A DNA stretch of 64,000 nucleotides from Escherichia coli (GCF_003334385.1 NZ_QOWN01000004.1); one strand, 5' to 3'. Positions 22,525-64,000 are shown, counted from the first letter of the stretch. The notes: generated from the sequence alone by a model not told the origin. Program-made: numbers and translations.

Positions 22525-22609
22525 GCCGAAGTGGCGAAATCGGTAGACGCAGTTGATTCAAAATCAACCGTAGAAATACGTGCCGGTTCGAGTCCGGCCT
22601 TCGGCACCA
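22525..22609 (+). tRNA. leuX: tRNA-Leu (anticodon CAA), leuX, 85 nt including CCA
   Basis: Sequence GCCGAAGTGGCGAAATCGGTAGACGCAGTTGATTCAAAATCAACCGTAGAAATACGTGCCGGTTCGAGTCCGGCCTTCGGCACCA folds as a type II tRNA with a long variable arm and anticodon CAA at 22559-22561. Confidence 0.92.
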
Positions 22610-22621
22610 TCGGAGCATCAA

Positions 22622-22647
22622 TAGACGTCAACGGACGTCTTTTTTTG
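22622..22647 (+). terminator. leuX rho-independent terminator (GACGTC-AACG-GACGTC + T7)
   Basis: Perfect 6-bp stem, 4-nt loop, followed by TTTTTTT about 13 nt after the tRNA 3' end. Confidence 0.6.
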
Positions 22648-22795
22648 TGCCTGAAATCCAGTATTTACCCATCATTCCCGCTATATTAACTCTCTCAAGG
22701 TCAACCGACTTCAACGTACATCTACCAACAGATGTTGGTACAGATGATGGTATTTCCGGTTCGATAATGCTTGTACCAACAGGGAGGGGATAAGC

Positions 22796-24040
22796 ATGGC
22801 TCTAACAGATATCAAAGTCAGAACAGCTAAGCCAACAGATAAGCAATACAAGTTAACTGATGGCAGTGGTATGCATCTTCTTGTCCACCCTAATGGTTCT
22901 AAGTACTGGCGTTTGCAGTACCGTTTTGACGGCAAGCAAAAGATGCTGGCTTTAGGTGTTTATCCTGACGTGTCGCTTGCCGATGCACGGACTCGCCGTG
23001 ACGACGCTCGTAATTTGTTGGCAAACAACATCGACCCGGGAGACAAAAAGAAAAGTGATAAAATTGAGCAAGAAGAAGCCCGCACTTTTGAACAACTCGC
23101 AGTTGAGTGGCATGCAACAAATAAAAAGTGGTCGGAAGAACATAGCAGGCGAGTACTGAAAAGCCTGGAGGATAATCTGTTTCCAGCTATTGGTAAGCGG
23201 AATATTGCGGATCTCAAAACCCGAGACCTGCTAGCCCCAATCAAAGCCGTTGAACTGTCAGGACGGCTTGAGGTTGCTTCACGATTACAACAGCGAACCA
23301 CGGCAATTATGCGCTATGCCGTGCAGAGTGGTTTACTGGACTATAACCCCGCGCAGGAGATGGTTGGCGCTGTTGCTTCAAGTAACAGACAGCATCGACC
23401 TGCTCTTCAGTTGAAGCGAATCCCAGAACTATTACGGCGCATAGATAGTTATACCGGTAGACCTCTTACTAGACTTGCCGTCGAACTCACGCTCCTGGTA
23501 TTCATTCGTTCAAGTGAACTACGCTTTGCTCGTTGGTCTGAGATCGATTTCGAAACATCAATGTGGACAATACCTGCAGAGCGCGAAGCTATTGACGGAG
23601 TAAAGCATTCACAGCGTGGTTCAAAAATGCGTACGCCTCATCTGGTGCCGCTTTCTCATCAAGCTTTAGCAATTCTTAAAGATGTTTACAAACTTAGTGG
23701 TGATCGCGATTTTGTTTTCATCGGCGATCATGACCATCGCAAACCGATGAGTGAAAACACGGTGAACAAGGCGCTGCGCGTTATGGGTTATGACACGAAG
23801 GTAGAGGTTTGTGGGCACGGTTTCAGGACAATGGCCTGTAGTTCATTGATCGAGTCTGGATTGTGGTCGAGGGATGCAGTGGAAAGGCAGATGAGCCATA
23901 TGGAACGTAACTCAGTACGCGCAGCTTACATTCATAAGGCCGAACATCTTGATGAACGGCGACTGATGCTGCAGTGGTGGGCTGATTTTTTGGATGCGAA
24001 TAGGGAAAGCGAAGTTAGCCCTTATGACTTTGGCAAATAG
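22796..24040 (+). CDS. P4-type tyrosine integrase (IntB-like), 414 aa, adjacent to leuX
   Basis: Tyrosine recombinase catalytic residues in the C-terminal half (R in MRTPHLVPL, HxxR in HGFRTM, Y in RAAYIHK); N-terminal MALTDIKVRTAKP... is typical of P4-family integrases, 187 bp downstream of a tRNA gene. Confidence 0.9.
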   Translation: MALTDIKVRTAKPTDKQYKLTDGSGMHLLVHPNGSKYWRLQYRFDGKQKMLALGVYPDVSLADARTRRDDARNLLANNIDPGDKKKSDKIEQEEARTFEQLAVEWHATNKKWSEEHSRRVLKSLEDNLFPAIGKRNIADLKTRDLLAPIKAVELSGRLEVASRLQQRTTAIMRYAVQSGLLDYNPAQEMVGAVASSNRQHRPALQLKRIPELLRRIDSYTGRPLTRLAVELTLLVFIRSSELRFARWSEIDFETSMWTIPAEREAIDGVKHSQRGSKMRTPHLVPLSHQALAILKDVYKLSGDRDFVFIGDHDHRKPMSENTVNKALRVMGYDTKVEVCGHGFRTMACSSLIESGLWSRDAVERQMSHMERNSVRAAYIHKAEHLDERRLMLQWWADFLDANRESEVSPYDFGK

Positions 24041-24142
24041 TCTAATTCCTGATGCTTGCTATGTTCGATTTTGAAAAGCCGGCTTGAACTATAACCTATA
24101 CTTTTTTATAACTGTATTATTCTGGCGACTCAGAGGTGCACT

Positions 24143-24376
24143 ATGAAAACTTTCGATACTCAACTTGCGATGAGCATTGTATCGCACTCAACGGGAGGTT
24201 TTAGTTATGACACCCTAGCTAGAGCGTTGATTTCTAAAGATAAAAATGAAAATCCTGACGACCTTCTTGAGTCGTGTCGAAATTTTTGTCTCTCTCTTGA
24301 GGAAAAAGGTATTCTGAGGCGATGCCAAAGATGTTCTCATTCTCAAGATGAGTATTTCGAGTATATTCCTCACTAA
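24143..24376 (+). CDS. Hypothetical small protein, 77 aa, AT-rich
   Basis: ATG start with upstream AGAGGTG; followed 2 nt later by a strong stem-loop (24378-24409). No recognisable motif. Confidence 0.3.
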   Translation: MKTFDTQLAMSIVSHSTGGFSYDTLARALISKDKNENPDDLLESCRNFCLSLEEKGILRRCQRCSHSQDEYFEYIPH

Positions 24377-61749: not shown

Positions 61750-63006
61750 ATGGATTTCTTTCGTTTTTTGATGAGCGATGTACTTTCCGAACCCGCAGTG
61801 CTGGTCGGTTTAATCGCCCTGATTGGCCTGATTGCACAGAAAAAACCGGTAACCGAATGCATTAAAGGTACCGTCAAGACCATTATGGGGTTTGTGATTT
61901 TAGGCGCAGGGGCGGGTTTAGTTGTGTCGTCACTGGGTGACTTCGCAAACATTTTCCAGCATGCCTTTGGTATTCAGGGTGTAGTGCCGAACAATGAAGC
62001 CATTGTTTCCGTAGCGCAGAAAAGCTTCGGGAAAGAAATGGCAATGATTATGTTCTTTGCGATGGTTATCAACATTCTGATTGCCCGTTTCACACCGTGG
62101 AAATTTATCTTCCTGACCGGTCATCACACGTTGTTTATGTCGATGATGGTAGCGGTAATTCTGGCAACAGCAGGCATGACTGGCATTACGCTTATAGCCG
62201 TTGGCTCTTTGGTTGTTGGCGTGGCAATGGTCTTTTTCCCGGCTATAGCGCATCCGTACATGAAGAAAGTGACCGGTTCTGATGACGTTGCCATCGGTCA
62301 CTTCTCAACATTATCTTATGTATTGGCCGGTTTCATCGGCAGCAAGTTTGGTAATAAAGAGCACTCGGCTGAAGACATGAACGTGCCGAAAAGTCTGCTG
62401 TTCTTGCGCGACACGCCGGTTGCTATCTCTTTTACCATGAGCATAATTTTCCTGGTGACGTGCCTGTTTGCCGGGGCAGATGTGGTGAAAGAGCTTAGCG
62501 GTGGTAAAAACTGGTTCATGTTCTCCATCATGCAATCCATTACCTTCGCAGCTGGCGTGTACATCATTCTGCAGGGTGTGCGTATGGTGATTGCGGAGAT
62601 TGTTCCGGCATTCAAAGGTATTTCAGACAAGCTGGTTCCGAATGCCAGACCTGCTCTCGATTGCCCGGTCGTCTTCCCTTACGCACCTAACGCTGTACTG
62701 GTTGGTTTCCTGAGCAGCTTTGCTGCAGGTTTAATCGGTATGTTCATGTTGTATCTGCTGAACATGACCGTGATTATTCCTGGTGTGGTGCCGCACTTCT
62801 TCGTAGGTGCGGCTGCAGGGGTATTCGGTAATGCAACGGGTGGACGTCGTGGTGCGATTTTGGGGGCCTTCGCTCAGGGCTTGCTTATTACCTTCCTGCC
62901 AGTATTCTTATTGCCTGTGCTGGGTGATATTGGTTTTGCTAACACCACCTTCAGTGATGCTGACTTTGGCGCACTGGGTATTTTGTTAGGGATTATCGTT
63001 CGCTAA
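61750..63006 (+). CDS. PTS EIIC permease (ascorbate family, UlaA/SgaT-like), 418 aa
   Basis: Polytopic membrane protein starting MDFFRFLMSDVLSEPAVLVGLIALIGL...; operon order IIA-IIB-IIC downstream of the LacI regulator. Confidence 0.8.
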   Translation: MDFFRFLMSDVLSEPAVLVGLIALIGLIAQKKPVTECIKGTVKTIMGFVILGAGAGLVVSSLGDFANIFQHAFGIQGVVPNNEAIVSVAQKSFGKEMAMIMFFAMVINILIARFTPWKFIFLTGHHTLFMSMMVAVILATAGMTGITLIAVGSLVVGVAMVFFPAIAHPYMKKVTGSDDVAIGHFSTLSYVLAGFIGSKFGNKEHSAEDMNVPKSLLFLRDTPVAISFTMSIIFLVTCLFAGADVVKELSGGKNWFMFSIMQSITFAAGVYIILQGVRMVIAEIVPAFKGISDKLVPNARPALDCPVVFPYAPNAVLVGFLSSFAAGLIGMFMLYLLNMTVIIPGVVPHFFVGAAAGVFGNATGGRRGAILGAFAQGLLITFLPVFLLPVLGDIGFANTTFSDADFGALGILLGIIVR

Positions 63007-63018
63007 TATTTTAATGAC

Positions 63019-63075
63019 ATTAATATCCTCCAGGATTTCAGGAACGTGGAGGATATTAATTCCTCTTATTTTTTT
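63019..63075 (+). terminator. Rho-independent terminator after the PTS operon (12-bp inverted repeat TTAATATCCTCC...GGAGGATATTAA + T-rich tail)
   Basis: Perfect 12-bp inverted repeat 13 nt after the IIC stop, followed by TTCCTCTTATTTTTTT. Confidence 0.55.
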
Positions 63076-63539
63076 CCATTTTTCTTTCTTCCAGTTAGGA
63101 CTGCATCTGATTAATCGTAAGCGCTCCGAGAAGTACGTAGTGTAAGGATTATTTTACAGTTGAGAAGTTTCAGTGCAGCAGTTCATGCACACGGTTCGAC
63201 GGCTAGTCATTGATCTTCATAATAACCTCGCGTAAAAAGCGGGGTAAGGCCGCTCATCCAGCGTCATCTCGACAGGTAATAATTCAACGCCAATGCCAGA
63301 AGAGTTCCTTACCGGAAGACGCCGTGATATACGCCCTTTGATCAGCCAGAGCCTGAGCCATTTGAACAGAAGATTATCATTGATATCATGCTCCCGGGCA
63401 GGCAACAGAAACCCTTGGTTGTAAAGCCAGTTTAACCATTTGAAGTTTAAACTCATTTGAACATGACCTGCGGGGTTCAGCTGATAATGTTTTTTGTTCC
63501 ATAACAGGTGTCCACTAGTTGAAAAGGTGGGTACCTATG

Positions 63540-63705
63540 TTACCAATACTGGCTTAATGGCTACATACAGCAGTCGGTTTACGCATACACTTTTATAGTG
63601 CACTCCGGCCTCATGAATATAACGGCGGATTACCGCCGAACGAATTGGAAAATAGATACTGGAAAAAATCTGAAATTGTGACCAGTTTTTGTTGACCACT
63701 ACAAA
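63540..63705 (+). mobile_element. IS3-family orfB 3'-end remnant (second copy, related to 48883-48963)
   Basis: Translates in frame to ...[34 protein letters not shown], a close but non-identical match to the C-terminus of the orfB at 48124-48963. Confidence 0.55.
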
Positions 63706-63830
63706 TAAATAAAAGAGTTGCAGTGCTTGCTCGGTAAGAAAACAATGGAAGTTGAGATCCTAAAAGAAGCTGTGGAGTACACCACTCTACAGTAGTTGCG
63801 CAAATTTGGAGTGGACGATAATGTGATCGT

Positions 63831-64000
63831 TGGATTTGCCCCTATATTTCCAGACATCTGTTATCACTTAACCCATTACAAGCCCGCTGCCGCAGATATT
63901 CCCGTGGCGAGCGATAACCCAGCGCACTATGCGGATGCCATTCGTTATAATGCTCGAACGCCTCTGCAAGGTTCTTTGCTGCCGTTAACCCGTCTGGTTT
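63831..64000 (-). mobile_element. IS2 end (terminal inverted repeat TGGATTTGCCCCTATATTTCCAGACA...) with transposase C-terminus on the minus strand; element continues beyond the window
   Basis: Sequence from 63831 matches the IS2 terminus as I recall it; the minus-strand frame encodes ...[35 protein letters not shown], a typical IS3-family orfB C-terminus. Confidence 0.65.

Follow-up and report, generated by a model that had tools for sequence, protein, structure and literature searches.

What occupies the chromosome beyond the tRNA gene leuX in the Escherichia coli stretch presented here, and how did it come to lie there? The stretch (64,000 nucleotides of NZ_QOWN01000004.1, hereafter the window) runs from core genes into leuX, and from there through an integrase gene and a cluster of dpd genes into a series of metabolic genes and remnants of insertion sequences (IS). 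A first-pass annotation had described everything from leuX to the end of the window as accessory DNA forming a mosaic island of at least 41 kb, with no core genes before position 64000 and its far boundary out of view. We found that the region is very likely an occupied leuX integration and defence hotspot. A stack of modules of about 62 kb lies between leuX and nanS, and the module carrying the integrase and dpd genes (int-dpd) now appears to move by homologous recombination.

The window is E. coli chromosome, and its positions 20000-44000 and 44000-64000 are each 100% identical to several complete RefSeq chromosomes. One of these, HCP5S3_I4 (NZ_CM149869.1), matches it contiguously at 100% and served as the source of annotation and of the sequence past 64000, which is given in extended coordinates. 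Prevalence was determined in 5,426 complete E. coli genomes. Genes were called with NCBIfam equivalog cut-offs, Pfam, PADLOC models and the annotation of the Prokaryotic Genome Annotation Pipeline (PGAP), and RNAs with ARAGORN and Rfam. Junctions were mapped by BLAST against the IS30D, IS911B and IS2 copies of K-12 and against strains EC0026B and 26561, the latter serving as the dpd-negative comparator for module borders.

The flanks of the region are near-universal and its contents are not. The left flank (ahr/leuX) was present in all 5,426 genomes and the right flank (nanC-nanM-nanS', nanCMS) in 5,094 (94%), whereas the prevalence of the modules between them ranged from 0.8 to 51%. The dpd block was found in 46 genomes and the sigma-54 operon, a putative catabolic operon next to a sigma-54-dependent activator gene, in 137 (2.5%), always at ≥99% identity. 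The phosphotransferase system (PTS) genes with their LacI-family regulator (LacI-PTS) were found in 1,350 genomes (25%; 936 at ≥80% coverage), with two occurrences on plasmids, and the fec genes in 2,775. The accessory reading would have been overturned had the sigma-54 operon and the PTS proved to be core genes at this locus in most genomes. With frequencies of 2.5% and 25% they are not, and the accessory interpretation therefore stands.

The remaining first-pass claims about extent were borne out by the sequence past the window. Beyond 64000, NZ_CM149869.1 continues with an IS2 split by IS100, an aldose-epimerase/fucP/rbsK/DeoR cluster, ISEc23, an IS911 tail, yjhV, fecEDCBA-RI, ykiE and an IS1. 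Homology to K-12 resumes at fec. The right border lies where this IS1 meets a truncated nanS, at extended position 84978, 20,978 bp (~21 kb) beyond the window end. This truncated nanS, followed by nanM, nanC and fimB, is the first of the near-universal genes after the island. The island spans 22610 to ~84977, or ~62.4 kb, and consists of modules with different histories.

The left border and the first internal border were revealed by comparison with strain 26561. Homology between the two strains stops at 22610, one base past leuX, and resumes at 47257; from inside IS30 onward, the two share one backbone (99-99.8% identity). On the leuX side of this backbone, a near-P4 integrase and a HamA/DEAD-helicase pair replace int-dpd in 26561. 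Since the cargo was swapped on the same backbone, the 24.6 kb from 22610 to ~47256 constitute a replaceable unit.

The left end of this unit suggests how it first arrived. The gene leuX encodes tRNA-Leu(CAA) and lies at 22525-22609 on the plus strand (ARAGORN, Rfam). Its final 20 nt (22590-22609, GAGTCCGGCCTTCGGCACCA) are both the P4-type attachment (att) core and the left border of the island. The annotated attP core of phage P4 is identical to these 20 nt, which is why "P4-type integrase at leuX" is an accurate description. The element-side arm of the left attachment site (attL) extends over 22610-22795 (plus strand, from direct reading of the sequence) and contains the motif GTACCAAC(AG) three times, in two direct copies and one inverted copy, which are candidate arm-type integrase sites. 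The sequence following the core in the window also follows leuX in Salmonella dpd islands. The integrase gene itself (22796-24040, plus strand) begins 186 nt after leuX, so that the two features lie next to each other as first annotated. It encodes an intact P4-family tyrosine integrase of 414 aa with Arm-DNA-bind_3, Phage_int_M and Phage_integrase domains (Pfam). The protein shares 58.8% amino acid identity with the P4 integrase across 99% of its length, and the catalytic motifs are kept in the alignment. The allele of the window was found at ≥99% identity in 73 of the 5,426 genomes.

The matching right attachment site (attR) was not found. A downstream search for a direct repeat of the leuX 3' end had been proposed together with the first annotation. 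Neither the 23-mer nor the 20-mer leuX core, with up to three mismatches allowed, has a match elsewhere in the window or in the following 63 kb of NZ_CM149869.1, and exact repeats of at least 11 nt from leuX or its flank are likewise absent from the 62 kb island. Of the tRNA 3'-end direct repeats that could flank the island, only the one in attL is present. Since attL is intact and attR is lacking, excision of the island by the integrase is no longer possible. Moreover, no excisionase-like gene adjoining the integrase was identified by annotation or family searches. Judged from its sequence, the island is a decayed, fixed and non-excisable remnant.

The same core search found no attR in K-12, in strain 600468 or in any other locus fetched for comparison, with the exception of a hybrid core that visual inspection revealed in the Salmonella locus L028. 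In this locus and in L030, leuX and the dpd island are separated by a P4-like satellite (psu, delta, primase). Around 6780-6870, L028 contains P4-type arm repeats and the hybrid core GAGTCCGGCCTTCG-CACCA, with one base deleted, after which the flank continues as it does after leuX in the Salmonella locus L027. Satellite and hybrid core together thus illustrate directly how elements accrete in tandem at the att site.

In the window, the place where an attR might have lain is occupied by IS junctions. The right end of the int-dpd module consists of a Zn-ribbon protein gene (DUF7828) and a 34-codon YagK/YfjJ remnant (46591-47255, minus strand; annotation, Pfam), which we read as leftover backbone of a CP4-type island. 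A more complete form is present in strain 600468, where a sister dpd variant is followed by an IS-free, full CP4-type backbone (YagK/YfjJ, GTPase, DUF932, antirestriction, RadC, YeeU/CbtA). The 600468 island has a different phosphorothioate (PT)-dependent restriction enzyme, also ends at a truncated nanS, and likewise yielded no attR core. In the window, the YagK remnant is followed by a 5'-truncated IS30 remnant (47257-48055, plus strand; BLAST against K-12 IS30D) and an IS911 3' remnant (48176-48973, plus strand; BLAST against K-12 IS911B). In carriers such as EC0026B, the module stops at an IS911 into which a complete IS30 has inserted. Compared with EC0026B, the window has an additional deletion of ~0.9 kb over imperfect microhomology at the module/IS30 junction, which removed 144 bp of the YagK remnant, the 5' part of IS911 and 421 bp of IS30. 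No carrier retained an intact right end: every E. coli carrier examined stops at IS911/IS30 or at further deletions.

Taken together, these features are consistent with a history in two layers. The first layer (22610 to ~47256) would have entered as an element comprising a P4-family integrase, Dpd and queD, by recombination between its attP core and the last 20 nt of leuX. This first entry of int-dpd was very probably site-specific, as suggested by the P4-matching core and integrase and by the presence of the same int-dpdCAB at leuX in Salmonella. The right end of the layer, any attR included, would later have been lost to IS911/IS30 insertion and deletion. The second layer (~47257 onward) would be an older backbone of IS remnants carrying the PT-dependent enzyme, two operons, a dead intron, fucP/rbsK and fec, and ending at an IS1 that deleted into nanS. 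Within E. coli, int-dpd would then have passed between lineages by homologous recombination, taking along a variable length of core flank (ahr, yjgR and beyond).

The proposed spread by recombination is based on single nucleotide polymorphism (SNP) profiles of the core flank, determined for five dpd-positive strains (RM13516, 2013C-4991, KSC64, AR_0017 and 95-3322) against the window. A nearly SNP-free tract shared with the window extends to a variable distance left of leuX in these strains, while their outer flanks differ by 1-3%. In RM13516 (O145:H28), divergence ends at ~20.1 kb, leaving ~2.4 kb of shared flank that includes the whole of ahr and part of yjgR. The shared flank is ~4.2 kb in 2013C-4991, where divergence ends at ~18.3 kb, and ~14 kb in KSC64 and AR_0017, where it ends at ~8.4 kb. 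Strain 95-3322 shares no flank: it differs by 20-37 SNPs/kb up to 22421, 104 nt before leuX, and then shows only three differences across 22610-24400. The dpd-linked ahr allele (window 20000-22524, comprising the 3' part of yjgR and ahr) is 3-4% divergent from the alleles of K-12, 26561 and 95-3322, a difference well beyond what is usual for the E. coli core. Because the breakpoints vary among the backgrounds of these five flanks, we suggest that int-dpd was imported repeatedly via flank homology. A SNP at 20610 is private to the group of the window strain.

A full account of Dpd turnover at leuX would then include a rare or single integration, loss of attR to IS activity, and subsequent passage, as a segment of chromosome, from one E. 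coli background to another, by flank homologous recombination that carries the ahr allele and a variable core flank along. We rate this complete sequence of events as having somewhat better than even chances. If it also holds for other cargo, the integrase of this hotspot would be mostly a relic and flank recombination the working transfer route.

Alternatively, int-dpd might still be an active element that spreads by integrase-mediated excision and integration at leuX. The full-length integrase with its catalytic motifs, the exact core in attL, the breakpoint of 95-3322 at leuX itself and the same int-dpdCAB at leuX in Salmonella would all be expected of such an element. Against it, the island contains no attR core, whether searched with up to three mismatches or as an exact repeat of at least 11 nt, the right end is an IS911/IS30 junction common to carriers, and no excisionase-like gene was identified by the integrase. 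Moreover, three backgrounds have an identical core flank of unequal length, which is not expected from site-specific integration. We therefore consider a still active element improbable.

We also asked whether the whole stretch from leuX to nanS could be a single coherent island or prophage of ~62 kb that was delivered at once by the P4-type integrase. This would agree with the lone integrase at the tRNA-proximal end. It would also agree with the 97 genomes that contain at least 80% of 44000-64000, and with the many that contain the entire window at 100%. However, a single delivery does not explain why the prevalences of the modules diverge (46, 137, 1,350 and 2,775 genomes), nor why the same backbone stands behind another integrase and cargo in 26561. 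In the dpd-positive strains RM13516 and 95-3322, dpd runs almost straight into fec, and the sigma-54, intron and PTS modules are absent. Conversely, the LacI-PTS/fucP/rbsK module is found in CFT073 in another island, beside pic and cdiA. Considering also that module borders fall at IS remnants and that no attR was found, we regard a single delivery as highly unlikely.

Least likely of all is that the sigma-54 operon and the LacI-PTS are ancestral core genes since lost by most strains: their GC content (0.47-0.52) is near the genome average and the LacI-PTS occurs in a quarter of the genomes, but the rarity and near-identity of the sigma-54 operon suggest recent spread, the LacI-PTS belongs to another island in CFT073 and occurs twice on plasmids, both operons are bracketed by IS remnants, and the 26 kb between direct IS911 3' fragments that contain them (48974-75281) are missing from K-12.

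Several points weigh against our preferred reading of a module stack with a recombining int-dpd segment. Base composition is not uniformly atypical: GC content is 0.40-0.47 in int-dpdCAB and 0.46-0.56 in the distal modules versus 0.52-0.55 in the flank, and dpdE-D, at 0.53-0.56, is core-like. The flank profiles come from five strains, of which KSC64 and AR_0017 may be close relatives of the window strain and nothing more. Pairwise SNP tracts fit both import of the island and replacement of the flank, so that the direction of the events we propose is a matter of interpretation. The successive integrations that the distal layers would represent are suggested by IS remnants and by the Salmonella example, and the island contains no second core. 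Finally, the activities of Dpd and of the other island enzymes are predictions from sequence similarity.

The cargo of the int-dpd module could be assigned gene by gene. A 77-aa open reading frame (ORF) at 24143-24376 (plus strand), annotated in KSC64 and AR_0017, is kept beside dpdC in both E. coli and Salmonella. The next gene, dpdC (24476-25432, plus strand), is predicted to convert preQ0-DNA to ADG-DNA. The 318-aa ORF with a GTG start matches the PADLOC DpdC model PDLC02818 with 528.7 bits (E = 1.3e-159) over model positions 1-318 of 319. PGAP calls this gene a "hypothetical protein" with a start at 24581, and the shorter form reaches 471.7 bits. The start was therefore probably mis-called by RefSeq/PGAP, and the correct one is probably 24476. 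In Pfam, the ORF has only weak matches to DUF6884 and YaaA. As PGAP, NCBIfam and Pfam were unconvincing for this gene, we considered that dpdC might be absent and that the cluster might yield dPreQ0 alone. This was ruled out by the end-to-end PADLOC match.

The modification pair follows at 25506-27886 (plus strand) and comprises dpdA, a DNA-guanine transglycosylase gene (NF041059, 580 bits), and dpdB, a DGQHR/ParB-like gene (NF041060, 474 bits). The genes dpdE, F, G, H, I, J, K and D occupy 28203-45715 (plus strand) and make up the presumptive restriction half, with predicted SNF2-like, RecQ-like and DEAD helicases and a phospholipase D (PLD)-family nuclease. Each of DpdA, B, D, E, F, G, H, I, J and K passes the cut-off of its NCBIfam equivalog. 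On the opposite strand lies queD (45978-46340, minus strand), an additional preQ0-pathway gene that encodes a 6-carboxytetrahydropterin synthase (TIGR03367, 111 bits, above cut-off). The gene order is dpdC-A-B-E-F-G-H-I-J-K-D, followed by queD, and by these matches the "Dpd-like genes" of the first-pass annotation form a complete dpd cluster.

The two halves of this cluster compare differently with Salmonella. When the Salmonella loci L027-L031 were aligned to window positions 22587-27869 and 38962-43145, the integrase, the 77-aa ORF and dpdCAB were 90-95% identical at the nucleotide level (94.6% for dpdCAB), whereas the dpdD-K block was inverted and only ~68-72% identical. The modification and restriction halves therefore have different histories. 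The integrase of the Salmonella dpd loci is broken by an IS3-family element. A second dpd variant, with a queD that is 82% identical, occupies the same locus in E. coli 600468 and about 55 genomes.

Behind the IS911 remnant lies a 26 kb segment, from 48974 to extended position 75281, bracketed by two IS911 3' fragments in direct orientation, with 92.5% identity to each other, and containing the PT-restriction enzyme, the sigma-54 operon, the intron, the LacI-PTS, the fucP cluster and ISEc23. Its first gene (48997-49833, minus strand), originally noted as an HNH nuclease, is intact and can be named more precisely. It encodes a phosphorothioated-DNA-binding HNH restriction endonuclease of Type IV, similar to ScoMcrA (NF045808, 413.8 bits; Pfam DNA-SBD_ScoMcrA and HNH_2). 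In strain 26561, the PT-dependent HNH gene is split by an IS100 (16939-19734 of locus L005); in the window strain, IS100 is instead found within the IS2 beyond 64000.

Both catabolic or transport operons of the first-pass annotation were recovered by annotation and NCBIfam. A PrpR-like sigma-54-dependent activator (50115-52028, minus strand; NCBIfam; Pfam PrpR_N, PAS and Sigma54_activat) precedes genes for a CaiB/BaiF family III CoA-transferase, a hydroxymethylglutaryl-CoA (HMG-CoA)-lyase-like enzyme and a major facilitator superfamily (MFS) transporter of the anion:cation-symporter (ACS) type (52265-55760, plus strand; NCBIfam). Together, these form a putative organic-acid catabolic operon. 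A pattern search identified the near-consensus sigma-54 (-24/-12) sequence TGGCACacatcTTGGA at 52189-52204 (plus strand), 61 nt 5' of the CoA-transferase start codon. Since chance alone would give as many pattern matches in the window, the site is no more than a candidate promoter, and its position alone is suggestive. The second operon consists of a LacI-family regulator (59689-60720, minus strand; NCBIfam) and PTS IIA, IIB and IIC genes of the ascorbate/SgaT type (60991-63006, plus strand; NCBIfam).

A group II intron lies between the operons at 57441-59238 (plus strand), as originally reported, although it has decayed. Its ribozyme domains D1-D6 are all present, with D1-D4 at 57441-57728 and D5/6 at 59167-59238 (Rfam RF02001, 132 bits; RF01998, 64.5; RF00029, 48.5). 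No intact reverse transcriptase (RT)/maturase was found. Two overlapping ORFs at 57892-58338 (148 aa) and 58242-59162 (306 aa), which PGAP lists as two fragments, separately match positions 2-130 and 127-353 of TIGR04416, each under the 300-bit cut-off. Because its RT/maturase is broken into two ORFs, this intron is probably inactive. Some otherwise identical strains (L016, H16-H18) have 2,270 additional bp at 48484/48485, within the IS911 remnant, and these encode a 502-aa group II intron RT/maturase that is intact. In contrast to the decayed one at 57.4-59.2 kb, the intron that targeted the IS911 remnant was therefore active.

The rest of the distal part is made up of hypothetical ORFs and further IS remnants. 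An IS21 transposase remnant (56675-56995, minus strand) and an IS110-family transposase remnant (59238-59561, minus strand), both from annotation, flank the intron. From 63831 onward (minus strand; annotation and BLAST against K-12 IS2), an IS2 remnant, itself split by IS100 beyond the window end, runs past 64000. With IS30 and the IS3 members IS911 and IS2, this gives the four IS families listed in the first annotation, all as truncated remnants. Two hypothetical ORFs were annotated at 56115-56459 (114 aa, plus strand) and 63217-63456 (79 aa, minus strand). Like the ORF at 24143-24376, they had no family matches.

The first 22.5 kb of the window have the core gene order of K-12 (mgtA, ridA, pyrBI, ..., valS, holC, pepA, lptFG, yjgR, ahr), apart from the missing idn operon. 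In the yjgR-ahr intergenic region (21181-21309), the 5 kb idnK/idnDOTR cluster of K-12 is absent from both the window and 26561 and present in the Salmonella loci; this interval is a second variable segment directly left of leuX. The flank varies at other points as well. A yjgL-like gene at ~6000-8300, with a GC content of ~0.38, is hypervariable (83% identity, 50-140 SNPs/kb between strains). In 95-3322 (L024), an arginine deiminase cluster of the arcABC type replaces the yjgH-bdcAR-tabA-yjgL stretch, another small variable spot in the "core" flank. At 15353-15524 and 16358-16552, Rfam identified two naRNA4 copies of the repetitive extragenic palindromic (REP) type, between holC and pepA, and Ysr276 on the plus strand, antisense to the minus-strand pepA.

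Finally, we compared the island with known occupants of leuX and with related elements. Satellite phage P4 has an integrase of the same family and the same 20-nt attachment core. The P4 genes alpha primase, sid, delta, psu, epsilon, cI and vis are not among the island genes, and a reading of the island as a P4 satellite was ruled out, as only dpd, queD, the 77-aa ORF, the Zn-ribbon gene and the YagK remnant lie between the integrase and the IS30 remnant. The Salmonella dpd islands occupy the same leuX site with int-dpdCAB at 90-95% nucleotide identity and a full dpdA-K set; the dpd cluster of S. Montevideo is known to be inserted at leuX (PMC5699537; also PMC10164549). Relative to these, the E. 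coli dpd island additionally contains queD and the CP4-type remnant, and the backbone fused to its downstream end is a different one.

In E. coli K-12, the space from leuX to nanS is taken up by KpLE2 (leuX-intB...fec...yjhR). Its P4-type integrase by leuX has ~80% nucleotide identity to that of the island described here, with which KpLE2 also shares the IS911 interrupted by IS30, fecIRABCDE and IS1. In KpLE2, however, intB is a pseudogene, and nanXY, yjhU-I and the sgc operon are present, while dpd, the PT-restriction enzyme, the sigma-54 operon, the intron and the LacI-PTS are lacking. Compared with KpLE2, the window strain has a deletion beside IS1 that took out the segment yjhU-yjhR and part of nanS.

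The locus as such has been described as E. coli "hotspot #37", which is occupied in 97.3% of genomes and contains 31 types of defence system (Hochhauser et al. 2023, PMC10121019). In 68% of cases, it has no detectable mobile element, and its mode of mobilisation "could not be readily determined" (PMC10121019). A 2025 review reports Dpd in 2% of strains at this hotspot and an arm-type integrase at the left end (PMC12707154). Our flank tracts bear on the open remark about mobilisation, since they provide a concrete and checkable case of defence cargo that apparently moves by homologous recombination and not through its integrase, a mechanism that is known in general. For annotation, the island can now be delimited from leuX to IS1/nanS and treated as a fixed mosaic, and dpdC can be named with a start at 24476. 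The window and hotspot #37 agree in position, in the arm-type integrase by the tRNA gene, in Dpd and defence cargo, and in the replacement of cargo between strains, and most occupants of the hotspot have no recognisable complete mobile element. There is no essential difference between the two, and to the published picture the window adds exact junctions, the absence of attR and the evidence from SNP tracts. The locus, Dpd and their association had already been published, and the window is one instance of this described hotspot.

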